Source: a candidate division WS6 bacterium GW2011_GWF2_39_15
Lineage (GTDB): Bacteria; Patescibacteriota; Dojkabacteria; SC72
Reading direction: 5' to 3'
Assembly: GCA_000993565.1 (NCBI GenBank)
Contig: LBWK01000001.1
Location: forward strand, 84,869-148,868
DNA length: 64,000 nucleotides
The position numbers and the translations under genes were made by a program. Numbering within the stretch: the stretch's first letter is position 1; each line of letters starts with the position of its first letter. Shown here one piece after another: positions 10,759 to 57,686 of the stretch. The notes beneath the pieces were generated by a model. The model ran no database searches. It was not told the origin of the DNA and saw nothing but the letters and a program-made list of their open reading frames with translations.

Positions 10759-11397
10759 ATGATACTACCATCGTTGGACTTAGAAAAAAGCCTGTGGGCC
10801 AAAGGTTATGAAAATGTCGCCGGCCTAGATGAAGTCGGTAGAGGCCCCTTAGCCGGACCTGTAGTGGCTGGGGTTGTTGTTATAAATAAAGAGGAGCAGG
10901 TTATAGAGGGGGTTAGAGATAGTAAAAAGTTAAGTGAGAAAAAGAGGGAAGAACTTAGTGAAAAAATAGTAGAAGTCTCAGCAGGCTATGGAATAGGGTT
11001 TGTAGGTAGTGAAGAGATTGATATGTTTGGGATTGCTAAAGCCGTTAATTTGGCCATGACAAGGGCTGTGGAAGAAATGGTAACATATTTCAATATAAAT
11101 CCAGGCTTTCTTATAATAGATGGTAAGGCAGTATGGGATATCTCACCATATCCTTGTCTTAAAATGGATAAGGGAGATCTTCATCACTACTCAATCGCTG
11201 CTGCCTCTATAATTGCCAAGGTTGCAAGGGATAACCTGATGAAGGAGTACGCTGCTAAGTATCCTAATTATGGTTTTGACTCTAATGTAGGGTATGGTAC
11301 TAAAAAACATCTTGAGGCTATTCAAAATTACGGCATATGTGATATACATAGGAAAAGTTTTCACCCTATTTCAAATTTTGTTGTAAATACTGAGTAA
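10759..11397 (+). CDS. rnhB: Ribonuclease HII
   Basis: 212 aa. GLDEVGRGPLAGPVV contains the catalytic DEVGRG motif. Overall length is as expected for RNase HII. Confidence 0.85.
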   Translation: MILPSLDLEKSLWAKGYENVAGLDEVGRGPLAGPVVAGVVVINKEEQVIEGVRDSKKLSEKKREELSEKIVEVSAGYGIGFVGSEEIDMFGIAKAVNLAMTRAVEEMVTYFNINPGFLIIDGKAVWDISPYPCLKMDKGDLHHYSIAAASIIAKVARDNLMKEYAAKYPNYGFDSNVGYGTKKHLEAIQNYGICDIHRKSFHPISNFVVNTE

Positions 11398-11424
11398 GAG
11401 GTTGTATAATGCTTAAGTTTGTGA

Positions 11425-11500
11425 GGGCCGTTAGCTCAGTTGGTAGAGCATCTGGCTTTTAACCAGTTGGTCCCGGGTTCGAGTCCCGGACGGCTCACCA
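11425..11500 (+). tRNA. tRNA-Lys (anticodon TTT), CCA encoded
   Basis: Sequence gggccgt-ta-gctcagttggtagagc-a-tctgg-ctTTTaa-ccagt-tggtc-ccgggttcgagtcccgg-acggctc-a-cca. Confidence 0.8.
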
Positions 11501-11513
11501 TCCTTGCAAATAA

Positions 11514-11966
11514 TCAGAACATTTCTTTCCAGTTAATTGTTGAAAAATACTGTGGAATAACTCTTTCTCTAACCTTTTCTATAAACCCGGTTGCATCAGG
11601 CCAGGTTAGTCTCTCAGGTTCTACGAGAGTCGCCTTGGTAGTATTAAGAGCAATTAATCTTATTTCACCCTTCGCATTAGTTACAGTTCCGGCAAGCCAG
11701 ACAGAATGAGTTCCTAGTATATTGATTGACACTGGATCTTGAAGATAGCCTTGCACAAGATTTCTACCATCTGACAATAATCTCACTTCATCACCAATCA
11801 CTAGATCTTTAGCTTCCATAGTATATTTAGGATCTAAACCATTCACAAGGAAATGGAGGAGGCCTTTACGGGGCACAATATATTTACTATCAGGCATATT
11901 TAGAATTGAAACAACTAAAGCAAAATAAGCTATATAGGATATTAATCGACTTTGCAAAACCTGCAC
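11514..11966 (-). CDS. Signal peptidase I-like (S26 family) membrane protein
   Basis: 150 aa with an N-terminal TM. NMPDS resembles the SMxPT box carrying the Ser nucleophile. AKDLVIGDEV resembles the KRxIGxPGD box carrying the Lys general base. SDGRN resembles the GDNR box. Confidence 0.45.
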   Translation of the reverse strand: MQVLQSRLISYIAYFALVVSILNMPDSKYIVPRKGLLHFLVNGLDPKYTMEAKDLVIGDEVRLLSDGRNLVQGYLQDPVSINILGTHSVWLAGTVTNAKGEIRLIALNTTKATLVEPERLTWPDATGFIEKVRERVIPQYFSTINWKEMF

Positions 11967-12091
11967 GAGAATGGGGCTAGAATCAAATCCCGATGGCTCT
12001 ACTCTGCATAGAGTTTAGAACCCTGGGGTCAGGCTCTAAAGCCCGATCTAACAATGTATTTGCTTACTAATAATTTCTCATCGTTTGTGGT

Positions 12092-13111
12092 ATGATCCAT
12101 AGATTCATGAAAAAGCCAGAGCTCAACTACAAGAAATTTCTAAAGATATCACTCCAAATATTTATCTACGTTTTGGTCATATACTACATTTACGAAAGAG
12201 CTTCTGTGGGAAGAGATCTTGTTAAGTCAATTGAAAATATTGACAAAATATATTTCATATCAGCGATACTTGTTTACTTGATTCAAACACTGTTCAACTC
12301 CTTTTTGTGGTTTATAATAATGGTAAAATCGGGAGAGAAAGTAAGCTTAGTGTCACAAGTAGATGTTTACTTGAAATCCTACTTACTTAGATATATTCCG
12401 GGTAATGTTGTAGGTATATTTGCAAGAGGTGAATTTAACAAGGTTTATGGTGTATCAAGACTCAAAAGCTTGTGGGGATGGTTCCTCGAAAATATTACTT
12501 TCTTAGCCGTAGGTATTGGTTTTGGCTCATACTTCATTGTAAAGAACCTTACATCTGTACTTAATTTCACGACAAGTGTTGTTTCTCGCCAGAACATAGT
12601 AATTGCTATATCGGGTGCGGTCGTTATACTAATCTTGTTTGCAGTCTACCTCTCCATGTATAAGACGAATGAGCTGTGGAAGTTTTTCGACAGTTACATT
12701 CTAAAGAAGGTGCTCAAGAAAAATCTCGGTAAAAGCATTACTATTAAATTTGACAACCAATCGAGGATACTCATAGTTTTAGGGTACATAGTCTCATGGG
12801 CAATGTACTCAATCTCATTTATTCTTATGGTTGCAGCAGTTGATCCAGCGGCCTTAGAATATCCAATAGCATTAGCCTCCGTAAACGCCTTAGCATGGTC
12901 ACTAGGCTACCTGTTTATAATCACTCCAAGCGGTTCAGGAGTTAGAGAGGGAGCCTTTCTTTCACTTCTACCTCTAATTGCAGGAATTAGTCCAGTTGGT
13001 TCCGCAATCATAACGATAGGCATGAGATTAGTCAATGTAATCGGGGAAGTTGGTGCTTTCGCCTTATTTAAGGCGTATACTGTACTTAATAAAATGTACA
13101 AAAGATTGTAG
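12092..13111 (+). CDS. Flippase-like domain (UPF0104 / lysyl-PG-synthase TM region family) membrane protein
   Basis: 339 aa and polytopic. The MKKPELNYKKFLKI start, the TM distribution and the ...ITPSGSGVREGAF motif match the UPF0104 'flippase-like' family, which is frequently coupled to glycosyltransferases. Confidence 0.5.
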   Translation: MIHRFMKKPELNYKKFLKISLQIFIYVLVIYYIYERASVGRDLVKSIENIDKIYFISAILVYLIQTLFNSFLWFIIMVKSGEKVSLVSQVDVYLKSYLLRYIPGNVVGIFARGEFNKVYGVSRLKSLWGWFLENITFLAVGIGFGSYFIVKNLTSVLNFTTSVVSRQNIVIAISGAVVILILFAVYLSMYKTNELWKFFDSYILKKVLKKNLGKSITIKFDNQSRILIVLGYIVSWAMYSISFILMVAAVDPAALEYPIALASVNALAWSLGYLFIITPSGSGVREGAFLSLLPLIAGISPVGSAIITIGMRLVNVIGEVGAFALFKAYTVLNKMYKRL

Positions 13112-14035
13112 ATGAAGAAAGTATCCGTCATAGTCCCCATATACAATGAGGGTGAAGCAGTCCGATCTTTTCTAAATGACTTGATTAAAGAAGTAGGCAA
13201 ACTTAAATATCAATCTGAAATACTGGTTTTTGATAGCCCTACCTCCAAAAATTCCGAAAAGGTACTTCGAGAATTTGCAAAAAAGTATCCCAATGTGAAA
13301 GGATATGAGGTACGACATCCTGGTGTTACTGTTACAGACAAAACAAATAAATATATGCTGGGCATACAGCTTGCACAAGGCGATTACATAATAACGTCTG
13401 ATGGAGACGGGCAGGACAGGCCTGAGGAGTTCCATAAGTTCTTCCAAGCACTGGAAGAGGGATATGATTTCGCAATCGGGCGTAAAAAGAAGAGAAGAGA
13501 TGGCCTAGCGTACATGATAACATCACGCATTGCCAACTTCATTGTCAGATCCATTACCGGAGTAAAAGTTCATGATATGAATAACGGGATAAAAGCTTTT
13601 AGAAAGGATATAGCGAGAGAATTGAATTTGAAGGCAGGTCATTTTAGATTTATTCCTGTAATCGCAGCCGCAAAAAAGTGGAAGATAACGGAAATAGATG
13701 TTGAGCATAGGGAACGTTTAGGAAAAGGTAGGTTTTCATTTATGAGCAGGCTCCAGGGAGGGTTATTTGACATGCTTATAGTTTACTTCATTACAAAAAT
13801 GGGAGATACACCTATGTACCTGCTTGGCTGGTTCTCCCTAATTATGAAGCTTTTTGCATTTGTATTCCTCCTTCTTGGCCTTTTTGGCAAGGGGGAGGTC
13901 TTCTATATACTGTCACTAATGATATTTCTTTTCTCTATAAATACCTTTCTGTCAGCACTCCTAATGGAATATCAAAGAACTTCCTATGAGAGAAAAGATT
14001 ATTCTTCACTCATTGTTGAGAAGATCGGCAGCTAA
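13112..14035 (+). CDS. GT2-family polyprenyl-phosphate glycosyltransferase (DPM1/GtrB/ArnC-like)
   Basis: 307 aa. VSVIVPIYNEGEAV marks the GT-A fold start, followed by a DGDGQD (DxD) motif. Two C-terminal TM helices match the GtrB/ArnC architecture. Confidence 0.75.
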   Translation: MKKVSVIVPIYNEGEAVRSFLNDLIKEVGKLKYQSEILVFDSPTSKNSEKVLREFAKKYPNVKGYEVRHPGVTVTDKTNKYMLGIQLAQGDYIITSDGDGQDRPEEFHKFFQALEEGYDFAIGRKKKRRDGLAYMITSRIANFIVRSITGVKVHDMNNGIKAFRKDIARELNLKAGHFRFIPVIAAAKKWKITEIDVEHRERLGKGRFSFMSRLQGGLFDMLIVYFITKMGDTPMYLLGWFSLIMKLFAFVFLLLGLFGKGEVFYILSLMIFLFSINTFLSALLMEYQRTSYERKDYSSLIVEKIGS

Positions 14036-15720
14036 AAAACACATAAGCTTTTCTTATCCTCGACCCTAAATATAAAGTAGTGATTTTTTAGAATAGATTC
14101 GGGTTTTACATCTCCCTTGAAGTATTTGTAACGTAAGCATCTTTGCCATGTTGATAAACTTTTTGAATTTGAAGAGATATCTTCTTTCGGATATACAATG
14201 TAACTCTCTACACCCAACTCGGCCTGTTTGTTTTCTTGGTAAAACCTTTCTTGCTGCCAATCTAAATTACTTCCGTGCAGATATAGATAACCGTTTTTAG
14301 TTCCACCGGTTATTTCGTTGAAATATTCTAAATAGTTTGTGAAAGCTCTTATTACAACCAACAGATGAGCAGTAAGAAGGATAGTTAAAAGCAGTATGAA
14401 GAGCCTGGATTTATATTTTTCGATGAGGATTGAAACCACATAAGCAATTAGTAAACAGAGGAAGGGGTAGATCGGTAATAGATGACGCACGCCTATATTT
14501 ATAGAGCTGGCTAAAGAGAGGAAGGTAAGGACAGTTGGAATTGCTAATAACGGTAGATAATACCCCTTATTTTTCATAAAAAGTTTAAAATTTTTATATA
14601 GGAGAACAAGAGCATAAGTGACTGAGAAAAGTGATAGCAAAATGAAAGGCAGCGTCTCTTTTATGAGAAATGAAACAGGAAAATATAGAGGGTTTCCTCC
14701 ATTAAATGAGTGACCTAACAGATATGTCTTATGTCCGTGAAAGTTGTGCTTAATTACATTATCATAGAACCCCTTTAAATATTCAGGGAAAGGAAACTTT
14801 ACCTTCCTATATATAGTATCGAGAAAAGGCAGATTATCAAATGGCAGTATTCTATCAATAGTGTAAATATGATCATAGGTAGAATATACCTTTCCTGTGT
14901 TTCCATAATCGGCCTCGTAAATAGTTGTGAATTTAAAACCATATGCCGCTGTAAGAAGGAATAGCCATACTGCGATGATACCAATACAATTTATAAGGAC
15001 TCTTTTAGAATTGAGCTTAAAATGATGGGATAAAACCCAACCGTAGATCAAAACCCAAAAGGGAATTAGAAGTGTTGCTGTATATTTTGAAAGCAATGCT
15101 ATCAAAGCAGTAAATGTAAATAGCCAAGGGAAATGCCTCTCATCCTTTTTTGTTTTCCGCAGATCATAATAAAGTGAGAGTGTCGCAATAAATATTGTAA
15201 ACATTGCAGGTACATCTGTTGTTACAAGTGAGGAATGTGCAAGTACAGTAGGGGAAAGGCTCAGCAAAAAGATTGAGAGAAAAGCATATTTAAAACTAAA
15301 TAGCTTTAAAACAAGCTGATACGAAATAAATAACAATAGAGCAGAAAGTGCCGCAGATACCTGACGTGCCTGTACAAGGAAATTTAAGGAGTACGCTTCT
15401 CTACCTCCGTTTATCCATACAAGATTCATAGCGATATCATCTTTCTTAGCGTATTTCCAGTTGTCACTATTTAGATCCTCTCCCTTAAAATCAATATCAT
15501 AGGCAATTGGTATTGATTCAAGTACGTTGAAGAGAATAGGGTGATGTTGATTGATTCTATAATCGCCTGTCCTAATAAGCATAACACCGCGGGCAATATG
15601 ACTCGGTTCATCAGTAGTAAAGGAAAGATCCTTTGAAGAATTAAAGCTCAAAAAATAAAGCAGAAAAGATAATGCTGACGGTATAATAAGAGATATTATT
15701 AATTTCTTCAAAATAGTCAT
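14032..15720 (-). CDS. GT-C fold glycosyltransferase (family 39/83-like, ArnT/PMT-type)
   Basis: About 560 aa and polytopic. A first periplasmic loop carries the FTTDEPSHIARG (DE) motif typical of PMT/ArnT-type GT-C enzymes. Many TM helices follow. The start is 15759 or 15720; the latter avoids overlapping the helicase gene. Confidence 0.55.
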   Translation of the reverse strand: MTILKKLIISLIIPSALSFLLYFLSFNSSKDLSFTTDEPSHIARGVMLIRTGDYRINQHHPILFNVLESIPIAYDIDFKGEDLNSDNWKYAKKDDIAMNLVWINGGREAYSLNFLVQARQVSAALSALLLFISYQLVLKLFSFKYAFLSIFLLSLSPTVLAHSSLVTTDVPAMFTIFIATLSLYYDLRKTKKDERHFPWLFTFTALIALLSKYTATLLIPFWVLIYGWVLSHHFKLNSKRVLINCIGIIAVWLFLLTAAYGFKFTTIYEADYGNTGKVYSTYDHIYTIDRILPFDNLPFLDTIYRKVKFPFPEYLKGFYDNVIKHNFHGHKTYLLGHSFNGGNPLYFPVSFLIKETLPFILLSLFSVTYALVLLYKNFKLFMKNKGYYLPLLAIPTVLTFLSLASSINIGVRHLLPIYPFLCLLIAYVVSILIEKYKSRLFILLLTILLTAHLLVVIRAFTNYLEYFNEITGGTKNGYLYLHGSNLDWQQERFYQENKQAELGVESYIVYPKEDISSNSKSLSTWQRCLRYKYFKGDVKPESILKNHYFIFRVEDKKSLCVF

Positions 15721-17936
15721 ACTTGTAGTATATCTGAAGGGTGATTTTTGGTAAAACATATCGTCAAATGGTGAAGAGCCCTTGTACCTGCCACGTAGAA
15801 CTTCCTTGCTGATTCAAAGGTACTTGGATAGTTATCACTATTCACATCAATCAGAAAAACACTATCAAACTCCAAACCTTTAGCATTTAAAACCGGTGTA
15901 ATAATCACTCCTGCACTGTAGTTTTCCACTCCAATTGGTATTAAATACTGTGAAAGACCACCCTCTTTTTCTAGGTGCTCATATAAACTCTGTGCGGAAA
16001 CCGCATCTTTTGTTATGACGGCAATTGTGTTTCTGCTTTTATCTAATTCTTCCTTTATTTTTTCCGCTAACCTCTTTATATCACCTGATTTTCCTTCGAC
16101 AAGCGGGGAATCAGATTGAAGCACATCTACAGGTTCACCGTGGCGAAGAACGGCCTCAGGCCTTAAGTAACTTTTAGGAAACACCCTATCTATTCGTGTG
16201 GTAACATAATTAATAATTTCGATAGTAGTTCGATAACATTTGTTAAGTTGGTGATATTCATACGAAAGTTCACCATGATTAAGCTTTTTAGTAGTCTCTA
16301 TTAACTCTATCCAGTCATCGATGCAATTAGGTTCTCTAATTGCCTGTGCTAAGTCTCCAGCTAGCATTAAATTTGATTTCTTTGTTGTCAAATACATTGA
16401 GTATATCTGGGAGTAACTGAGGTCTTGGGCCTCATCTGCAATTATATAATCCCTAAGGACATCTGCAGAGCCGTTTAAAAGTAAGTGAAGAATTAGTAAG
16501 GCAGGTAGATCGTCGGCCTCATATGTATAGTAACTCCTAAGCTTTCTGACAATCTTATCTGTCCTCTGCTTTACTGCTGATGGTATAGACATTTTTGAAA
16601 CGATTTTTTTGTAGATCATCATTATATCCAAGCCTTGCTTTAGATAATCCTCAATTTTTTCTGTAATAACATCCCCATACAATTCATTTCGTCTAAGAAA
16701 TGACGCAGTTGTACTACCTTTATACATGAGCTGATTTTTTTCCTTCTGAACAGATAGCTTGAGAGCCTCAACTGGCGTGATATCAGCCGATTTTGCACGA
16801 ATCTCGTAATAGTTTCTATATATTTTCTCACTGTTTGAAAAAGGCAAACCCTCAAGTAATTCATCAATATACTCTGTAAATCCTTCCACAAGCTGTATAA
16901 GGAATTCTTTTGAACCTTTAATCATTTGCGACTCAGGATCGGGTTTGATATTCGCAAGAATATGCTTATTCGACCAATTTAAGACTTTTTTAGCCCAGAA
17001 AAGGTATGTGTTGGTTTCAACTCCATCGATTCCAAGAGAAGGCAATACATCTGAAATATAATCCAAAAATAGTTTGTTTGGTGCAATAATCAAAGTCTTT
17101 TCAGCCTTTATCTGTTTATTATATGTGAAGAAAAGATATGCAAGCCGGTGCAGCACAATTGTCGTTTTACCGCTTCCCGCAACACCTTGTAGAACACTAA
17201 GTTTATCTATTTTATCTCTTATAATTCTATTCTGCTCATTTTGTATTGTTGACACTATATCAGTTAGTTTTTGACCGATCTTTTGATTTAACTGTGAGAG
17301 GAGAAACTCATCAGCTGCCGTATTACCTGTCTTCGCATCATAGATGCTTTTAATTCTGGCTTTTGAGATCTCGAACATCCGCTTCTGCTCAATACTTCCC
17401 ATTTGCTGACCAAGCGGGCTGGTAAACTCAACACCTTCGGTCGGGCCTGAGTTGGTATAGTAAAGATTGGCAATTGGTGCCCTCCAGTCTGTGATTAAAG
17501 AAGAATTGGTCTCACGATCAAAGTAGGCAAACTTTCCTATGTAGGAAGTGATTGAACCTTTAGGAAACTTTTCACTTCTCACTCTGTTAAAGACAACTTT
17601 GCCGAAGTAGGGGATATCTAAAATTTGAAGCTCTCGGTTAATCCGCTTCACATGCTCATTTATCATTTTCATGAGCTGATTATAAATTTTCACAGCCTCC
17701 TTTTTGTCATCTCCAGTTTCATTTTCGATTATGAGGACTTGCTTTTCAAGCTCATTCTCGAGTTCTTTGAGTCTGCTAAAAAGTGATGCAGCACGTTTAC
17801 TTACAATTGATGTCACATTTTGCAAATAGGGATACTCCTGTTTTAAAACATCTGAGGTAATATCTACATCTTTGAAATCTTTAAGCTCATCGAGCTTATC
17901 TATAAGCGGACTGAGATATTTTTTGAATGTGAGCAT
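15717..17936 (-). CDS. Superfamily-1 UvrD-like helicase, HelD (helicase IV)-like
   Basis: 739 aa. Walker A is GVAGSGKTT. The remaining SF1 motifs are IIADEAQD (motif II), LAGD..Q and CYRTT. A long N-terminal coiled-coil/extension is present, as in HelD. Confidence 0.7.
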   Translation of the reverse strand: MLTFKKYLSPLIDKLDELKDFKDVDITSDVLKQEYPYLQNVTSIVSKRAASLFSRLKELENELEKQVLIIENETGDDKKEAVKIYNQLMKMINEHVKRINRELQILDIPYFGKVVFNRVRSEKFPKGSITSYIGKFAYFDRETNSSLITDWRAPIANLYYTNSGPTEGVEFTSPLGQQMGSIEQKRMFEISKARIKSIYDAKTGNTAADEFLLSQLNQKIGQKLTDIVSTIQNEQNRIIRDKIDKLSVLQGVAGSGKTTIVLHRLAYLFFTYNKQIKAEKTLIIAPNKLFLDYISDVLPSLGIDGVETNTYLFWAKKVLNWSNKHILANIKPDPESQMIKGSKEFLIQLVEGFTEYIDELLEGLPFSNSEKIYRNYYEIRAKSADITPVEALKLSVQKEKNQLMYKGSTTASFLRRNELYGDVITEKIEDYLKQGLDIMMIYKKIVSKMSIPSAVKQRTDKIVRKLRSYYTYEADDLPALLILHLLLNGSADVLRDYIIADEAQDLSYSQIYSMYLTTKKSNLMLAGDLAQAIREPNCIDDWIELIETTKKLNHGELSYEYHQLNKCYRTTIEIINYVTTRIDRVFPKSYLRPEAVLRHGEPVDVLQSDSPLVEGKSGDIKRLAEKIKEELDKSRNTIAVITKDAVSAQSLYEHLEKEGGLSQYLIPIGVENYSAGVIITPVLNAKGLEFDSVFLIDVNSDNYPSTFESARKFYVAGTRALHHLTICFTKNHPSDILQV

Positions 17937-17988
17937 TTAGTTTGCAGTTAGATAAATGCGAAATTGATTTTACTACATAATGAAGGAA

Positions 17989-19050
17989 CTATTCAACTAT
18001 ATCAGTAATCACTCCCCCTCCAATGCATTGGTCATCTCTATATACTACAAGGCTTTGACCAACAGCTACTGCCCATTGAGGTTCAAGAAACGAGGCTAAA
18101 GCACTACTTCCGTTAAGAGATAGTGTTATTCTACTATCTTTTGATCTATACCTTACGGTAGCGGTAAAACTATCACTAAGTGTAATGTCAGAAATAATAT
18201 GGAAATGGTCTAACTTAACTGTTTTAGAATATAAAGAAGGACTATTTCTACCTTTTGTTACATATAGACGATTGTTTTCAACATCCTTCTTGCAGACAAA
18301 ATAGGGTTGGTCCAATCCACCGACCCTTAGCCCTTTTCTCTGTCCGATCGTATAAAACCAGACTCCATTATGCTGGCCTACGTCTTTGAGTGAGTCAATA
18401 TCAATAACCTCACCTAGTTTTTCCTTCAATTCTGTTTTAAGAAAGTTAGTAATATTTACCTTACCGACAAAGCAAATACCCTGGCTGTCTTTTCTTGAGT
18501 AGTTTGGAAGCTGTGACTTTCTGGCAATTTCCCGCACCTCTGGTTTAGTTAAACACGCTAGAGGAAACAGTGTTCGAGAGAGCTGTTCCTTAGTTAATTG
18601 GTGAAGGAAGTAAGTTTGATCCTTATTTGTATCCTTAGCGCGATACAAAGCTCCTCCCATTGTTCCCGCATAGTGTCCTGTGGCTATATAATCAGCCCCA
18701 TCTTCCATTGCACGATTCAGGAACTTATCAAATTTAATGAACTTATTACATAACACATCAGGATTTGGTGTATTTCCAATGCTATATTGGGAGAAAAAGT
18801 CTTTAATAACTAACTCTCTGTATTCCTTCTCAAAATTGTAAACCTTAAAGGGGATTTCTAATTTATCGGCAACTGCACGTGCACTCTTCAGATCTTCCTC
18901 CCAAGGGCACTGATCTTCAATCCCGTAATCACTTCCCGACCAGTTCTTGAGAAAAACACCAGTTACCCGATATCCCTGTTGCAATAGTAATAGTGCCGCC
19001 ACAGCACTATCTACACCACCAGATAATCCAACAAAGACATTCTTTCCCAT
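17989..19050 (-). CDS. mnmA: tRNA-specific 2-thiouridylase
   Basis: The PP-loop VFVGLSGGVDSAVAALLL is near the N-terminus, and the overall MnmA layout is present. The alternative start (MGKNVF...) at 19050 avoids overlap with the upstream gene; the ORF-track start is 19113. Confidence 0.85.
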   Translation of the reverse strand: MGKNVFVGLSGGVDSAVAALLLLQQGYRVTGVFLKNWSGSDYGIEDQCPWEEDLKSARAVADKLEIPFKVYNFEKEYRELVIKDFFSQYSIGNTPNPDVLCNKFIKFDKFLNRAMEDGADYIATGHYAGTMGGALYRAKDTNKDQTYFLHQLTKEQLSRTLFPLACLTKPEVREIARKSQLPNYSRKDSQGICFVGKVNITNFLKTELKEKLGEVIDIDSLKDVGQHNGVWFYTIGQRKGLRVGGLDQPYFVCKKDVENNRLYVTKGRNSPSLYSKTVKLDHFHIISDITLSDSFTATVRYRSKDSRITLSLNGSSALASFLEPQWAVAVGQSLVVYRDDQCIGGGVITDIVE

Positions 19051-19073
19051 ATGATTATTATAACTGATTTGGT

Positions 19074-19679
19074 CTACATTAAACTCATAACGTACTCGAC
19101 CTTTCTGGCCCATTCATTTGGTGTATGAGGGTTATAACGTGGTGCAATCTGACGCGGTGTAACAAGCCCAGATGAGTAATAACGAGAAAGACCTCTCGAA
19201 ACCGTGTAGATGGCTTCTTCCCAACTTTTGAACGTGTACGGCGACATACTACCTCCCCAGCCCCATGCGTTGTAAGGTCTATAGGTATATTTGCCCCCGC
19301 TGGATTCTATAATGGAAATTGCAGCTACAAGTCGATAATCAATTCCAAATTCCTGTGCTGTCTTAACAAGGTACTCTGCCTTGGCCGCAAGCGGAGCCCC
19401 ACGTGAGGCAAGATAAGCCCTTACTTTTCTCACCTTAATTTGATCAACATCCATTAGCTCCAATTTACGGGAGACTGTTCTGTAATCAATTTCGTCGTCG
19501 GCACTTAATATCTGAGTCCTGCTATTTACGCTAGAAGAAGCAAAGACGGAACTTATATTTCCTGAGATTAGGTAGAAGAAAACACGCTCCTGCGACTTAA
19601 GCAATGCACCTGTAAATAATATAAGGGCAAACACATAAAGAAGAAAATTATTTATTTTTGATGAATATTTTCTTTTCAT
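19074..19679 (-). CDS. Secreted lysozyme-like (SLT-type) putative peptidoglycan hydrolase
   Basis: 201 aa with an N-terminal signal/TM. AQEFGIDYRLVAAISIIESSGG resembles the SLT catalytic region (..yGvdpxLllAiixxESxf..) with its ES Glu. A conserved NAWGWGG block follows. It is a paralog of 28279..28959 and of a domain inside 35215..38490. Confidence 0.4.
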   Translation of the reverse strand: MKRKYSSKINNFLLYVFALILFTGALLKSQERVFFYLISGNISSVFASSSVNSRTQILSADDEIDYRTVSRKLELMDVDQIKVRKVRAYLASRGAPLAAKAEYLVKTAQEFGIDYRLVAAISIIESSGGKYTYRPYNAWGWGGSMSPYTFKSWEEAIYTVSRGLSRYYSSGLVTPRQIAPRYNPHTPNEWARKVEYVMSLM

Positions 19680-19747: not shown

Positions 19748-20377
19748 ATGGTACTTTCTATAATAAACTGGCTGATATGGCTGATTGAAAAAATTGGATA
19801 CTTAGGGGTTTTCACCGCTATGTTTATTGAAAGTTTTTTCGCACCTATACCAAGTGAACTAATCCTTCCCTTTGCAGGATTCCTAAGCCATCAAGGGACA
19901 CTAAACATTTATCTAGTAATCCTTTTAAGTGGTATAGCAAGCACCTTGGGTTCCTTGCCTTTTTATCTATTAGGATATTGGGGTAATGACTTGGTTGTAA
20001 ATAGATTTCTCAAAAGATACGGCAAATTCTTCTTTATAGCTGAGGAAGATGTCGAAAAGGGAATACTTTTATTTACGAAGCATGGCAAGCTTATGATATT
20101 TGCCGGAAGATTGATACCAATTATCAGAACGGTCATATCTTTCCCCGCCGGATTGGTTAAAATGAGCTTTACGGAGTTCGTACTCTTTACACTAGCCGGA
20201 TCAACTATATGGAGCGCCTTTTTAGCCCTAGCAGGATATGTATTGGGCTCACAGTGGGAGGTCGTGAGTATCTGGATAGAAAAATATCAAACAGTTATTA
20301 TAGTGTGCGGAGTAGCGGCCTTTCTCCTGTTCGTTTTCTACAAAATAGGCAAGAAAAGGCTAAAGAGATCTGATTAG
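19748..20377 (+). CDS. DedA-family membrane protein
   Basis: 209 aa. VFTAMFIESFFAPIPSELIL matches the DedA/SNARE-associated motif, with a typical TM layout. Confidence 0.7.
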   Translation: MVLSIINWLIWLIEKIGYLGVFTAMFIESFFAPIPSELILPFAGFLSHQGTLNIYLVILLSGIASTLGSLPFYLLGYWGNDLVVNRFLKRYGKFFFIAEEDVEKGILLFTKHGKLMIFAGRLIPIIRTVISFPAGLVKMSFTEFVLFTLAGSTIWSAFLALAGYVLGSQWEVVSIWIEKYQTVIIVCGVAAFLLFVFYKIGKKRLKRSD

Positions 20378-35214: not shown

Positions 35215-38200
35215 ATGAAATCCAAGAAGAAACTTGTTTCAAGAAACTCCAAATTTATATTCACTTTAATATTTATTATCCTAATTGTTGCCGGATTTTT
35301 TTACACACGAGACCTCTTTACGTCAAAAGCCCGTAATGTAAAAATCTCCAATATAACTTCAACCTCAGTGACATTAACCTGGGTCACCACTAAGAAAAAT
35401 GCCGGTATAGTTCTCGTAAAAGAAGGCTCTAATATTGGAAATTCATGGAAGGACTTTTTTACAGCACGAAGATACTACGATGACAGGGATATCTATATTA
35501 CTGCTACAAAAACAGTGATAAATGCTGAGCGAAGATATACACATTATGTTACGATCAACCATCTGACACCTGAAAAAAAATACTATTTCAGACTTTCTAA
35601 TGGCCTTCACATCTGGGATATCAAAGACGTTAATCAGAAGAAAGAGTGGTATGGAATAGATAACATATCATCTTTTCAATTTACAACCCCCGCAATTTCC
35701 TCCTCGGGACTGACACTTCCCCAGACAGTTTATGGCAATTTGGAAGATCAGAAAGCCCTTGCATATTCAGATGGGATTATCTTTGGACAGATTTACAGTG
35801 TTAACGATGAGGGAGAGGTTGATATTCAAAACAAATCCAGAATAATTTCTACTTTTGTCAATGACGATGGGGGATGGGTTCTTGACTACTCATTAGAAAA
35901 AAATGGATTCGAAAATAACAAGGATCAAATATATCTTTATGCTCACATTGAAAATAAAAGTGATATTCCGGGACAATTCGAAAATATCACAAGCGGAAGC
36001 AGTATCGTAGACCTTTTTGACTATGACCGCACACAATCATTAAGGCCTAGTTTTCTTCTTTCGCTCTCAAAACCTGTTTCGGCGGCAGGTGACCCAGTTT
36101 GTTGTGCCTTAATTATCAGCGGTAGAAAGAACGTTCTTTTTGATTATGAGGAGGCCGGGGCATGTACAACATGTGGCGAATGCTACAAGGTGGGAACCCA
36201 GGAATCAGGCGGAACACTATTAGAAGTAGGCAGTATTAAACCAAGAGGAGACAATGATGCGGAAAGGAGAAACAACTGTGAGAGTATGGATAGACTTGCA
36301 AGTAAAGGCTTACCCGCTGGTTCTGAAGACCAAAGCTCCAGTAGTAGTAATAATAACAGTAATAGCTCAGAAAATAGTTTCAGCGGTGCTTGTAATACGA
36401 GCTTAAAGGATGAGGATTTTACAGTATCAAACATAGATAAATCGCAATTTGTTGACTACGCAAAAAGACTTGGAGGAGGTGGAACACAAGCTGACAAATG
36501 TTATAACTACGTTGTATGTAAATCAAAGCAGTATGGAATAAATCCTGCACTTGGTCTGAGTATCTGGGTTCATGAATCTGCCGCAAGTGACTACCAAAGA
36601 TTTCCAAACGTTGAGGATATGGGTATCCACTGTTATGGCGGAGCAGGGAACTATCCTGCTTACCCATGTAATCAAACTCCTAAAGAGAATCTAAAAGCAC
36701 AGACCGAAATGTTTGGCCTTTTACCTCATACACAATGCCAATCCGGTGGTAGTTTTAATATCACTAAATGGGCAACAGGATTTTGGACAGGGAATTGTTC
36801 TGAGACTTCATATGGTGAGAAATATGTGGATGATCTTGAGTTGCAATGGAGTGTCTACGGAAAAGGTGCTTTTCCAAATTGGCTGAAGAATGCAGGAACT
36901 GCAAAACCTAACCTACCGTGTGATCAAGTAGCAAGTTCAACTCCTTCAACCCCCTCAACCCCGACAACCCCTTCTACACCTTCAACCCCTTCTACACCTT
37001 CAACACCAAGTACACCGACGACACCTAGCCAAAATACCGGAGAAAAATGTTGTGCCTTTATCCTTAAAGGGGAGAATGTCTATCGAAGTGAAAAAACTAC
37101 ATCCAATAGCTGTGCTGATGCTTTCGCAAAGGGTAGTTCCTATACTAGTGGGAATATATCGGGAACTATAGACTATGGAGTGGAAATAGGCAGGAAAGAG
37201 GTTCAAGTAATTAAACCCGCATGTTGTGCAATGATAGTTACAGGGAAAGATAATGTATATTTCGATTATGTAAATGACAAAATCTGCAACACTTGCGGAG
37301 ACTGCTTCCCCGTCGGGAGGACAGTAGCGGGAGGGAGAGTTACTGCAGTCGGAAGAGAGGTTCTGACGGGTGCTAACGACAACAGAACCACCTGTGAGTC
37401 TATAAAAAGGCCCGCCTCTTCAGGTGTTCCAGCCGATACTCCAGTCGAACCAGTTTTTTCAAACAAATGTAGCGGAACACAATATGATATAGAATGTAAA
37501 AACTATTTGCCTGTACCTAAAGGGGAAAATGCAATATCAGCTCCATATGGAGAAAATACCAGATGCCTAGATCCAAATGTGAAGCCCATAGAAGACGGTA
37601 TTACTAATATAATCATCAGCAAGGAAAATCCAAAAGTATTTACAAAACTACTCTCAACAGTACAGGCGGAAGAAAGCTACGTTAAATCAGTATCAGGGTC
37701 AGTTGTAACTTTCACAAAAGACGGAATATACAATATTGAGATTGGTGACCTGAAAGTATCAAATGTACCAATTAACTCAGATGGGAAATATAGATTCTAC
37801 CAAGAAATAAATGAGGAACGAGGATATCAAAGTTCTAAAGACAAAGCTCTAACGTTCAAAAATAAAAATGAGATAAAAGCTGTAAAGGTTGAAGACGGCT
37901 TTAGAGTTGAACTCAATGCTGGTTATAACTTCATTACAATCAACTATGAACGTCCTCCGATGTCTATTATAACTACGCCTGCAAATCCGACACAGATAAC
38001 CGCAGCTTCTGTATTAAATATTGGAAATATTGATGAAATCAAAGTAACATACCTGAGCACTTATGCAGATGGCAAGTGGGCAAATGGTATAAGGCCCCGT
38101 GATGATAAAAAGCCCGGGTTACTTGGGAATGACTTTGCTCTTCTCCCGGGACAAGGTTATATGATTATTTCAAACTCAGACCTGAAGGGCGGAATGGCCC

Positions 38201-38490
38201 TGATACTGCCAGGCAAAATTACTTCATCAAAAGTTTCAGTTGAAGTGAAAACCGGGTGGAACTTTGTTGGTTTAACAGGAAAAATCCAGCCACCTTCTTC
38301 TCTCAAATTTTTGGAGAAACTAATGAAGGAACATGGTTTAGCAAAAGTGAATATTACTCAGTGGGATTCAAGCAAGGGACTATTTGAGAGTGTTCAATAT
38401 GATGGAGAGATAGTATACGGAGACGATTACAATTTGAATAATGCTTCAGGGTACTTCTTGTATACGAATAAAGCTTTCACCCTTAAATAG
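35215..38490 (+). CDS. Large multidomain cell-surface protein (FN3-like, Cys-rich repeat modules, SLT-like domain, Pro/Thr/Ser linker, beta-rich C-terminal region)
   Basis: 1091 aa with an N-terminal TM anchor. The FN3 / purple-acid-phosphatase-N-like stretch is ISNITSTSVTLTWVTT...YYFRLS. Cys-rich module copies start at CCALIISGRKNVLFDYEEAGACTTCGECYKVG...NNCESMDRLASKGLPAG, CCAFILKGENVY... and CCAMIVTGKDNVYFDYVNDKICNTCGDCFPVG...TTCESIKRPASSGVPAD. The SLT-like block is YGINPALGLSIWVHESAASDY. The linker is STPSTPSTPTTPSTPSTPSTPSTPSTPTTPS. Confidence 0.6.
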   Translation: MKSKKKLVSRNSKFIFTLIFIILIVAGFFYTRDLFTSKARNVKISNITSTSVTLTWVTTKKNAGIVLVKEGSNIGNSWKDFFTARRYYDDRDIYITATKTVINAERRYTHYVTINHLTPEKKYYFRLSNGLHIWDIKDVNQKKEWYGIDNISSFQFTTPAISSSGLTLPQTVYGNLEDQKALAYSDGIIFGQIYSVNDEGEVDIQNKSRIISTFVNDDGGWVLDYSLEKNGFENNKDQIYLYAHIENKSDIPGQFENITSGSSIVDLFDYDRTQSLRPSFLLSLSKPVSAAGDPVCCALIISGRKNVLFDYEEAGACTTCGECYKVGTQESGGTLLEVGSIKPRGDNDAERRNNCESMDRLASKGLPAGSEDQSSSSSNNNSNSSENSFSGACNTSLKDEDFTVSNIDKSQFVDYAKRLGGGGTQADKCYNYVVCKSKQYGINPALGLSIWVHESAASDYQRFPNVEDMGIHCYGGAGNYPAYPCNQTPKENLKAQTEMFGLLPHTQCQSGGSFNITKWATGFWTGNCSETSYGEKYVDDLELQWSVYGKGAFPNWLKNAGTAKPNLPCDQVASSTPSTPSTPTTPSTPSTPSTPSTPSTPTTPSQNTGEKCCAFILKGENVYRSEKTTSNSCADAFAKGSSYTSGNISGTIDYGVEIGRKEVQVIKPACCAMIVTGKDNVYFDYVNDKICNTCGDCFPVGRTVAGGRVTAVGREVLTGANDNRTTCESIKRPASSGVPADTPVEPVFSNKCSGTQYDIECKNYLPVPKGENAISAPYGENTRCLDPNVKPIEDGITNIIISKENPKVFTKLLSTVQAEESYVKSVSGSVVTFTKDGIYNIEIGDLKVSNVPINSDGKYRFYQEINEERGYQSSKDKALTFKNKNEIKAVKVEDGFRVELNAGYNFITINYERPPMSIITTPANPTQITAASVLNIGNIDEIKVTYLSTYADGKWANGIRPRDDKKPGLLGNDFALLPGQGYMIISNSDLKGGMALILPGKITSSKVSVEVKTGWNFVGLTGKIQPPSSLKFLEKLMKEHGLAKVNITQWDSSKGLFESVQYDGEIVYGDDYNLNNASGYFLYTNKAFTLK
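36937..37026 (+). repeat. Imperfect 9-bp tandem repeat (TCA/TCT-ACM-CCT units) encoding the (S/T)TP(S/T) linker
   Basis: Sequence tcaactcct tcaaccccc tcaaccccg acaacccct tctacacct tcaacccct tctacacct tcaacacca agtacaccg acgacacct. These are 10 nonamer units in frame. Confidence 0.7.
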
Positions 38491-55609: not shown

Positions 55610-56932
55610 ATGCAAAAGATATACCGATTTCCTACAAACTTTCTCTGGGGGGCAAGTACAGCTGCACATCAAATAGAAGGAGACTGTACAAATGATTGGA
55701 GTGTATGGGAAAAGAAAAATGCCCAACGACTTGCAAAACAGGCCATACGGATATATAGACACCTTCCCAAATGGGATAGATTAAAGGAACAGGCACAGAA
55801 TCCTGCGAATTATATTTCAGGGAAATCAATTGACGGTTATAACCGTTACAGGGAGGATATGAACCTTCTCAAAGATATTGGGCTTAATTCGTACAGGTTC
55901 TCAATCGAATGGTCCAGAATCGAGCCAGAAGAGGGAGCATATGACGAAAAGGAGATTCAGCACTATCTGGAACAGCTGGAGTATATTAAATCAAAAGGGA
56001 TTGCAACAGTTGTTACTATCTGGCACTGGACAATTCCAACCTGGCTTGCAAATAAAAAAGGAGTTTTGTATCCAAACTTTCAAAAATCCTTTGTTGCTTT
56101 TGCAACTTTATTGGCAAAACGGCTTGGGAAGTATGTAGACTACTGGATTACACTCAATGAACCAGATGTTTATACAATGCAATCTTATCTGCAAGGTTTC
56201 CGCCCCCCAAGAAAGAAAAACTTTCTTAAAACACTTTATATCTACTTCATTTTACTCCCCAATGTACACAATGAGACTTATGATGCTATAAAGGAAGTTC
56301 TGCCTAAAAGCAAAATAAGTCTATCAAAACAGTTTGTAGGATATACCGCTATTGGAAACACTTTTGAAAACAGACTGATTGTTTTACTTGCACAGTTCTT
56401 TACCAATGATCTTTTCATGAACAGAGTCAAATCACATTTGGATTTTGTAGGAATTAATCATTACTTTACAACCAGAATAAATCTGTTTAGAGTAAAAACG
56501 CTTCTATTTAAATCCGCTCTAAACGAGTTCAAATATCTAGATCCACAAAATCGCATCTATTCGGATTTCGGGTGGGAACTTTACCCTAAAAGCCTTTATC
56601 TTGCTCTGAAGGATCTCAGGAAATATAAGCTTCCTGTAATGATAACGGAACACGGACTGGCGGACTCAGAAGACATTTATAGAAAGTGGTTTATAAAAGA
56701 CTCTCTCAAATACTTAGCAAAAGCTATGAACGAAGGAGTTAACGTGATCGGGTATCATCACTGGTCTCTATTAGATAACTTCGAATGGGATCAGGGCTTC
56801 TGGCCGCAGTTCGGGCTAATTGCTGTCAACAGAAAGACAATGGAGAGAAAAATAAGGAAAAGTGCCTTTACATACGGTAATATCGCGAGAAAAAATACAA
56901 TTAATCTACCTGAACATGAAGACGAAAAATAA
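55610..56932 (+). CDS. Glycoside hydrolase family 1 (beta-glucosidase-like)
   Basis: 440 aa. The N-terminal FPTNFLWGASTAAHQIEGD is the GH1 signature. TLNEPD carries the acid/base Glu and ITEHG the nucleophile Glu. Confidence 0.75.
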   Translation: MQKIYRFPTNFLWGASTAAHQIEGDCTNDWSVWEKKNAQRLAKQAIRIYRHLPKWDRLKEQAQNPANYISGKSIDGYNRYREDMNLLKDIGLNSYRFSIEWSRIEPEEGAYDEKEIQHYLEQLEYIKSKGIATVVTIWHWTIPTWLANKKGVLYPNFQKSFVAFATLLAKRLGKYVDYWITLNEPDVYTMQSYLQGFRPPRKKNFLKTLYIYFILLPNVHNETYDAIKEVLPKSKISLSKQFVGYTAIGNTFENRLIVLLAQFFTNDLFMNRVKSHLDFVGINHYFTTRINLFRVKTLLFKSALNEFKYLDPQNRIYSDFGWELYPKSLYLALKDLRKYKLPVMITEHGLADSEDIYRKWFIKDSLKYLAKAMNEGVNVIGYHHWSLLDNFEWDQGFWPQFGLIAVNRKTMERKIRKSAFTYGNIARKNTINLPEHEDEK

Positions 56933-57686
56933 AGAGTATTCCATCAAGGACTACGTGCTCGAGTATATGTTTATAACTCGTACCGGGCGACTCATCAGTT
57001 TCTCATACATTGTTATTGGAGTTTTCCTTCTCGGAGGCTACCAAGCCATAAATTATAATTACGGAAAACTCTTTGAAACGTTCCTGTTTGCTGGAGTTTT
57101 AGCTTATGGAGGTGTTTATGCCTTTAATAAATATACCGATTACACTGAGGACCAAAAGGTAGAGTACAAGTCAAAGAAAAGCAAAATTTTTGAAATATTC
57201 AGCAGAGACGATACTCTAGTTATTGCAATAGTAAATATGCTCTTAGGTTCAGTTCTGACACATCTCTTTTTACCTCAAATATTTGTTACAACCATTTCGC
57301 TTATTACCATTAATATAATATATTCCATTTACCTCAAGAAGTTTAATAGGCTTCTTGCCGTACTTCTAATATCAACAACCGGCCCACTGAAATTACTAAT
57401 TGGTATGCAGATTATAGGAGGTTCGCTAGAGCCGATTATTCCTATCCTCTTTACACATTTTTCGCTTTCCCTTGCCGTGCATATCTATAAACAACAACTA
57501 AAAGGATACCTAACGGACCAATGGTATAACCGAGTTCAAGTAGTCATCCTATGTCTTGTGCTAGTTTTCAGTTTATATATCTATACAGTACTTCAAAACA
57601 TAGTTCCTCTACTTTTTTCAATCATTGGAATTTCATCATGGACAATTTTCAGATATACTGGGTTTAAGAAAATATTTTTGCACTAA
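56916..57686 (+). CDS. UbiA-like prenyltransferase-family membrane protein (tentative)
   Basis: Polytopic. NKYTDYTEDQK resembles the UbiA NxxxDxxxD motif. The start is ambiguous (56862, 56916 or 56964) and the gene overlaps the end of the GH1 gene. Confidence 0.35.
   Translation: MKTKNKEYSIKDYVLEYMFITRTGRLISFSYIVIGVFLLGGYQAINYNYGKLFETFLFAGVLAYGGVYAFNKYTDYTEDQKVEYKSKKSKIFEIFSRDDTLVIAIVNMLLGSVLTHLFLPQIFVTTISLITINIIYSIYLKKFNRLLAVLLISTTGPLKLLIGMQIIGGSLEPIIPILFTHFSLSLAVHIYKQQLKGYLTDQWYNRVQVVILCLVLVFSLYIYTVLQNIVPLLFSIIGISSWTIFRYTGFKKIFLH

Follow-up and report, generated by a model that had tools for sequence, protein, structure and literature searches.

A predicted three-component glycosylation system with an MprF-like probable flippase in a Dojkabacteria genome

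What do three adjacent genes for membrane-associated proteins, two of them glycosyltransferases, do together in the candidate division WS6 bacterium GW2011_GWF2_39_15 (Dojkabacteria), a tiny inhabitant of groundwater? They lie in a 64,000-nucleotide (nt) stretch of its genome (GenBank assembly GCA_000993565.1, contig LBWK01000001.1, positions 84,869 to 148,868), called the window hereafter, whose own numbering is used throughout. The first gene (12092-13111, plus strand) encodes a UPF0104/LPG_synthase_TM membrane protein (PplT, MprF-flippase-like) of 339 amino acids (aa), the second (13112-14035, plus strand) a GT2 enzyme of GT-A fold and 307 aa, predicted to be a polyprenyl-phosphate sugar synthase, and the third (14032-15720, minus strand) a glycosyltransferase of GT-C fold, similar to the PMT/PMT_2 families. 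In GenBank, they are named hypothetical protein UT34_C0001G0100, 'Glycosyl transferase family 2' (KKR06061.1), and 'Glycosyl transferase family 39' (KKR06062.1, 562 aa), respectively. An initial annotation, made from the DNA letters, had placed the genes at these positions and read them as a cycle in which a polyprenyl-phosphate-linked sugar is made, flipped, and transferred outside the cell. All three open reading frames (ORFs) are present as described, the GT-C protein being read here as 562 aa long instead of 560, and the proposed cycle is supported by protein families, folds, motifs, and gene linkage. The three genes probably encode a three-component extracytoplasmic glycosylation system, running on a polyprenyl-phosphate-linked monosaccharide.

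The GT2 enzyme can be placed by sequence comparison. It matches the Pfam family Glycos_transf_2 (PF00535, E 1.3e-19), and its best NCBIfam matches are ArnC, AglJ, PgfS, dolichyl-phosphate hexose transferase, and PpgS, nearly all of the top matches being polyprenyl- or dolichyl-phosphate glycosyltransferases. These scores are all far below the equivalog cut-offs, and the protein is, therefore, none of those enzymes specifically. Among PDB entries, its residues 1-287 align with ArnC (9bhc, E 1.4e-22), residues 4-293 with GtrB/sll0501 (E 2e-10), and residues 3-197 with Pyrococcus DPMS (E 3e-10), and the ArnC and GtrB alignments run through both C-terminal hydrophobic helices (~234-285). The nucleotide-binding D41, the DxD motif (D97-G-D99-Q101), and D155 are all kept. 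The protein, thus, fits the ArnC/GtrB/DPMS type, with a GT-A domain containing a DxD motif and a C-terminal membrane hairpin, as had been noted initially, and, aligning end to end with ArnC, hairpin included, it is not a soluble enzyme. Because of this full-length homology to ArnC, GtrB, and DPMS, the GT-A domain is expected to be cytoplasmic and held at the membrane by the hairpin, where it would use a nucleotide sugar to load a single sugar onto polyprenyl phosphate (presumably C55-P).

For the two other proteins, sequence searches failed, and both were compared by fold. The GT-C protein passes the Pfam PMT_2 threshold narrowly (28.1 bits for a cut-off of 26.1 bits); no PMT (PF02366), PMT_4TMC, or MIR domain is detected in it (PMT and PMT_4TMC being searched to E 10), some of its homologues show weak PF02366 matches, and neither this protein nor UPF0104 has any NCBIfam match. 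The structure predicted from an alignment of 81 homologues (pLDDT 96.3, pTM 0.95) has, as its 27 best Foldseek matches, exclusively GT-C enzymes, with sequence identities of 9-15% to solved members of the protein O-mannosyltransferase (PMT) and ArnT families. Judged from this model, the GT-C fold first proposed for the protein is certain. The acidic pair that had been reported in the first external loop is D37-E38 (D50-E51 in the numbering of the ORF), right after the first transmembrane (TM) helix. At least 90% of the 81 homologues retain it, and H162, D169 (in T-T-D), K212, R412, and W488 are invariant among them. The C-terminal extracytoplasmic domain (about 100 aa), with the motif S-N-x-D-W-x-Q, has no counterpart among the proteins compared. 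With the GT-C fold and the acidic loop motif both in place, we infer that the enzyme would take the flipped lipid-linked sugar as its donor and, by means of the D-E motif in loop 1, glycosylate an acceptor on the membrane's outer face.

The candidate acceptors are Ser/Thr residues of secreted proteins, a wall or teichoic-type polymer, or a lipid. The first of these corresponds to a PMT-like protein O-glycosylation, directed at Ser/Thr in the Pro/Thr-rich linkers of secreted or anchored proteins. The best structural matches of the GT-C model are the protein O-mannosyltransferases Pmt4 and Pmt2, and, on these model-based scores, PMT is slightly ahead, which does not settle PMT versus ArnT. The family consensus D-E-x-x-H ... 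H-P-P-L-x-K resembles the PMT loop-1 signature of yeast Pmt1. In addition, several homologues bear TPR repeats, like the TMTC-type protein O-mannosyltransferases. A possible target is available in the window: the 1091-aa protein encoded at 35215-38490 (plus strand) has an N-terminal TM anchor, a domain similar to fn3/purple-acid-phosphatase-N, Cys-rich repeated segments, and a 32-residue (S/T)P linker, SSTPSTPSTPTTPSTPSTPSTPSTPSTPTTPS (residues ~570-602; 82% S/T/P over 40 aa). The initial annotation had mentioned heavily S/T/P-rich surface proteins in the plural; this holds for the 35215-38490 protein, and no other ORF is a clear case. Its Pro/Thr-rich linker is a plausible candidate for O-glycosylation, yet nothing, gene linkage included, ties it to the module, and protein O-glycosylation is retained as a tentative reading of the acceptor step.

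An assignment of the GT-C protein to ArnT and the arn pathway was rejected, with no ArnA, ArnB, ArnD, ArnE, or ArnF partner genes in the locus or window, and no sequence-level ArnT match in PDB (E <=1). More distant homologues of the GT-C protein (about 29% identity, locus L005) lie in unrelated glycan clusters and are uninformative on the module.

The UPF0104 protein matches Pfam LPG_synthase_TM (PF03706) over profile positions 3-295 of 302 (E 1.8e-16), and has no meaningful sequence match in PDB, either alone or as a 36-sequence profile. Its AlphaFold2 model (pLDDT 85.9) has MprF as all six of its best Foldseek matches (probability 1.0, TMq 0.51-0.59), led by the MprF flippase domain 7duw (E 8e-5, TMq 0.59), while the next matches fall below a probability of 0.2. 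This supports the flippase-like label given to the gene at the outset, and the MprF-type fold has demonstrated lipid-translocating cavities. R100, R112, E133, R285, E286, and R312 are the invariant polar residues of the family. The protein is not MprF itself, a candidate identity that was rejected: its 339 aa contain PF03706 only, without the aminoacyl-phosphatidylglycerol synthase domain, and no DUF2156 match is found in the GT2 protein (13112-14035), in a 150-aa ORF upstream (11514-11966), or in the window ORFs scanned against Pfam. With its MprF flippase-domain fold and its tight gene linkage, it is a putative translocase outside the GtrA, SMR, and MATE families. With a GT2 as its partner enzyme, it probably transports a glycosylated carrier lipid and not lysyl-phosphatidylglycerol.

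This partnership is visible in the gene layout. The GT2 start codon ATG (13112) directly abuts the UPF0104 stop codon TAG (13109-13111), giving TAGATG at 13109-13114 on the plus strand; an alternative UPF0104 start is possible at M6 (12107). In the relatives with called genes (L001-L004), the pair shows an overlap of 4-17 nt instead. GT2 and GT-C converge, and their 3' ends share 4 nt (14032-14035). The GT-C ORF comprises 575 codons (14032-15759, minus strand), but the gene is 14032-15720, as read from the sequence, starting at M14 (ATG at 15720), since the N-termini of homologues align from codon 14, the start codon takes part in an ATGA overlap, and the 562-aa form is the one in GenBank. This 4-nt overlap with the stop codon of a UvrD-like helicase gene (15717-15720, minus strand) also occurs in L002. 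The GT-C gene is the last of a minus-strand run (15717-19113) leading from MnmA (17989-19113) through the UvrD-like gene (15717-17936). The overlap implies that GT-C is co-transcribed and translationally coupled with MnmA-UvrD in the source genome. The run is kept in L001 and L002, and an opposite-strand HAD gene splits UvrD and GT-C in L003 and L004. A tRNA-modification gene and a DNA-helicase gene are odd operon partners for a surface glycosyltransferase gene.

Conservation was followed by scanning GTDB genomes, one for each species, with the UPF0104 alignment, which yielded 18 loci, on which hidden Markov models (HMMs) built from the three alignments made here were run. The order UPF0104-GT2, followed by GT-C in convergent orientation, is found in 12 out of 12 loci with enough flanking sequence, and three further loci of the same clade end at contig ends. 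The loci of close and intermediate GT-C homologues (L001-L004, with identities of 35-58%) all show the same arrangement, and five of the 12 (L018-L021 and L023) keep the triad at about 30-36% protein identity, the flanks being lost: the UvrD, MnmA, RNase HII, and YtxH neighbours are undetected there. In every locus, UPF0104 either overlaps GT2 or ends directly at its start. As the triad persists where flanking genes differ, its conservation is not mere inherited synteny, and the three genes constitute one functional unit; the strict conservation across diverged Dojkabacteria bears out their first grouping as one module. Several of the record titles in the scan ('Saccharibacteria', 'Gammaproteobacteria') seem to have been given, automatically and wrongly, to genomes that are Dojkabacteria-like.

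Outside this clade, in unrelated genomes, the genes are also linked in pairs. In L006, related GT2 genes are directly followed by a PMT/PMT_2 GT-C gene, and, in L026 and L007, a related GT2 lies next to or near a UPF0104 gene. In L026 (5956-7888), an ArnC-like GT2 gene scoring 356 bits with the GT2 HMM comes immediately before a diverged UPF0104-like gene, which Pfam misses and the UPF0104 HMM scores at 94 bits; no GT-C gene is detected in this locus as fetched. The metagenome-assembled genome concerned is labelled 'uncultured Gammaproteobacteria', and its gene content (short AlaRS, MnmA) is CPR-like, CPR being the Candidate Phyla Radiation. Such a GT2-UPF0104 pair would suit a glycolipid head-group system, in which the GT2 glycosylates a phospholipid or diacylglycerol, UPF0104 flips the finished glycolipid, and the neighbouring GT-C enzyme has a separate job, as modelled on the proposals made for GpgSDF of P. 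aeruginosa, HexSDF of C. difficile, and MprF. The cargos so far characterised or proposed for UPF0104 proteins are indeed phospholipid derivatives, and archaeal UPF0104 genes also adjoin deacetylase and glycosyltransferase genes (PMC5898192). Nevertheless, the synthase of GpgSDF is a soluble GT4 enzyme (GT-B fold), not a GT2 with a TM hairpin (PMC12713373), the GT2 studied here aligns with ArnC, GtrB, and DPMS, all of them polyprenyl- or dolichyl-phosphate enzymes, no deacetylase is present at the locus, and the pair has GT-C at its side in each of the 12 fully sampled loci, also where the flanks differ. A glycolipid system is, thus, very improbable.

Domain fusions provide a second view on the partners of UPF0104. 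Searched in full by HMMER with the UPF0104 profile, 1.84 billion representatives yielded 12,781 relatives, the best 150 of which were inspected for length; 12 exceeded 440 aa, and 10 of these 12 were scanned. Six out of the 10 (P0223, P0234, P0239, P0285, P0286, and P0303) combine an N-terminal UPF0104 with a C-terminal DUF2079 membrane domain, the commonest long architecture among the nearest relatives. Of the remaining four, one has an unassigned C-terminus, and the fusion partner is otherwise a GT-B glycosyltransferase, a polysaccharide pyruvyl transferase, or a methyltransferase. The DUF2079 fusion also occurs at L025 2786-5218 and L027 6731-9205, with no adjoining GT2 gene in either locus; the DUF2079 fusion proteins are ~780-1216 aa long. 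As domain architectures, these fusions show that the UPF0104 family works with glycan-handling enzymes. DUF2079 presumably belongs to the Pfam GT-C clan. A nine-sequence DUF2079 profile gives a weak hhalign match to the PMT_2 core of the GT-C alignment (E 7e-4, probability 26%), a single DUF2079 sequence gives nothing (probability 0.6), and DUF2079 has no PDB sequence match and no mention in the literature searched. If DUF2079 is a GT-C domain, UPF0104 would work directly with GT-C transferases, and the fusions would be flippase-transferase polypeptides. Fusions of UPF0104 ('PplT') to glycosyltransferases have been catalogued by Hauser et al. (bioRxiv 10.1101/2022.03.11.483950).

On account of its fold, gene linkage, and domain fusions, UPF0104, translationally coupled to the GT2, would move the polyprenyl-phosphate sugar to the outer leaflet, where the GT-C enzyme would use it. 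Taken alone, its role as the translocase is held with somewhat less confidence than the three-component system as a whole. Several points weigh against this assignment or against the system itself. The UPF0104 contexts characterised so far (MprF, GpgF, E. coli YbhN) concern phospholipids and glycolipids, and there is no published experiment in which a UPF0104 protein flips a polyprenyl-phosphate sugar. The GT-C protein has no PDB sequence match at E <=1, as a single sequence or as an 81-sequence profile, and belongs to another transcription unit than UPF0104 and GT2. Pfam scans reveal no nucleotide-sugar synthesis gene in the locus or in the rest of the window. The GT2 reaches 110 bits for an ArnC equivalog cut-off of 529 bits, and is far under every NCBIfam equivalog cut-off; moreover, its Dojkabacteria clade has D-S (in D-S-x-T) at residues 41-42 in place of the near-universal D-D-G-S, and a five-residue insertion at ~67-78 (P-G-V-T-V-T-D-K-T-N-K-Y for N-F-G-K in relatives). 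The D-S motif and the insertion may mark an unusual or different nucleotide-sugar donor and, together with the sub-cut-off scores, make any assignment of donor and lipid specificity to the GT2 tentative.

A further point of this kind comes from Haloferax, in which the translocation of dolichyl-phosphate mannose implicates AglR and not the UPF0104 domain of AglD (PMC3871713). It favours an arrangement in which GT2 and GT-C are the donor synthase and the transferase, and the donor crosses the membrane by another protein or unassisted. UPF0104 would then flip or present a lipid acceptor, return free polyprenyl phosphate, or support the GT2 structurally, a role also possible for the C-terminal domain of AglD. 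There is, likewise, no published flippase assay for any stand-alone UPF0104 protein, and the flippase components of the other three-component systems are equally unproven (PMC11127046). Yet no GtrA-, SMR-, MATE-, or Wzx-like gene that could take over the step is found in the locus or elsewhere in the window, the lipid-translocating cavities demonstrated in the MprF-type fold suit a flippase, and fusions to DUF2079, a probable GT-C family, fit the hand-over of a flipped substrate. A synthase-transferase pair with a non-flippase UPF0104 is, hence, considered unlikely, and UPF0104 is kept as the probable donor translocase.

The recurrent UPF0104-DUF2079 fusions and the strictly conserved triad also suggest a broader reading, in which UPF0104/MprF-like proteins are general flippases for polyprenyl-monophosphate sugars that partner physically with GT-C enzymes, and in which Dojkabacteria hold a minimal version O-glycosylating Pro/Thr-rich surface proteins. 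This is speculative and rather doubtful; if true, it would extend PMT-type protein O-glycosylation to the CPR. Should the three-component reading itself be right, this small conserved gene set could offer a tractable test of polyprenyl-phosphate-sugar flipping by an MprF-type UPF0104 protein, and would bear on the surface decoration of CPR bacteria, which is relevant to their episymbiotic lifestyle.

The last step of the proposed cycle would be the inward recycling of the freed polyprenyl phosphate. A DedA/VTT-domain gene (19748-20377, plus strand) lies about 4 kb from the GT-C gene, between an iPGM gene and a conserved gene for a 201-aa membrane protein. DedA occupies the same slot in closer relatives (L001 3226-3849, L002 2815-3456), and a DUF368 gene (PF04018, VCA0040-like) fills it in L003 (1571-2509) and L004 (1-667). 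DedA and DUF368 are the two known undecaprenyl-phosphate recycling translocase families, and are synthetically lethal in Vibrio (PMC9876793). On gene position, the swap looks like an in-place non-orthologous replacement, and the slot fits carrier-lipid recycling for peptidoglycan synthesis and, possibly, for the module.

The rest of the window contains mainly housekeeping genes (GatA/B, DNA pol III alpha, UvrB/C, MutL, LexA, SOD, and ABC transporters). The 150-aa ORF with a GTG start (11514-11966, minus strand), between tRNA-Lys and the UPF0104 gene, has no Pfam match and no counterpart in related loci, where the spacer is occupied by different and unrelated small genes; the ORF may be specific to this lineage, or may not be a gene. 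The 125-bp spacer upstream of UPF0104 and the region after tRNA-Lys show no Rfam match beyond the tRNA, and no unusual folding (z -1.4). Promoter and terminator scans of 11300-19300 were uninformative, with 20 promoter-like sites for 26 expected from shuffled controls, and six terminator-like sites for 4.9 in shuffled controls. Farther away, a UbiA-family prenyltransferase gene (56862-57686, plus strand, E 4.5e-13) overlaps the end of a GH1 glycosidase gene (55610-56932, plus strand). UbiA-type enzymes include the polyprenyl-phosphate phosphoribosyltransferases of pentofuranose three-component pathways, and, on this family assignment, the gene could represent a second lipid-linked sugar route.

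How does the triad compare with known systems? In the established three-component scheme, a GT2 makes the polyprenyl-phosphate sugar inside the cell, a membrane protein translocates it, and a GT-C enzyme transfers the sugar outside; the flippase component varies in bacteria (GtrA, SMR, or MATE), and the flippase step is still unproven in all such glycosylation systems (PMC11127046). GtrA-GtrB-Gtr*, ArnC-ArnE/F-ArnT, CsbB/GtlA-GtcA-YfhO/GtlB, and PpgS-Rv3632-Rv3779 (PMC11127046, PMC8035078, PMC7389260) share with the WS6 triad the clustered genes, a GT2 with a C-terminal TM hairpin, a multi-pass protein in the flippase slot, and a GT-C enzyme acting outside. Unlike in these systems, the flippase slot is filled here by an eight-TM UPF0104 protein of MprF type, and not by GtrA, SMR (ArnE/F), or MATE, the GT-C gene runs convergently and shares a transcript with housekeeping genes, and the system resides in the reduced genome of a CPR bacterium. 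MprF itself has the same flippase-domain fold and PF03706, but carries an additional C-terminal aminoacyl-phosphatidylglycerol synthase domain. With the PMTs of GT39 and ArnT (GT83), the WS6 GT-C enzyme shares the GT-C(A)-type fold and the D-E pair right after TM1, and its GenBank name cites family 39; it differs by lacking MIR, PMT_4TMC, and arn partners, and by its own S-N-x-D-W-x-Q C-terminal domain.

A further parallel is archaeal. The neighbourhood of arCOG00899 (UPF0104), arCOG00897 (AglD-like GT2), and arCOG00563 (PMT/STT3-like), e.g., MJ_1079/MJ_1080, was interpreted by Makarova, Galperin and Koonin in 2015 as a flippase combined with glycosylation (PMC5898192). Compared through the Pfam assignments made here and that published description, the same three families are adjacent, with the same reading. 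AglD makes dolichyl-phosphate mannose, which AglS uses outside the cell (PMC3871713). In AglD, the GT2 is fused to UPF0104, whereas the WS6 bacterium has three separate proteins; one Archaeoglobus GT2 is found among the matches of the WS6 GT2, at 27% identity. The literature searched holds no description of the triad in CPR bacteria, and nothing that links these bacteria with GT-C glycosylation. The gain is, nevertheless, incremental and not conceptual, the logic being textbook and the same triad having already been described and interpreted in archaea. The WS6 locus is, overall, a new bacterial case of a kind already known and predicted, and its only unusual part is the MprF-like probable flippase.

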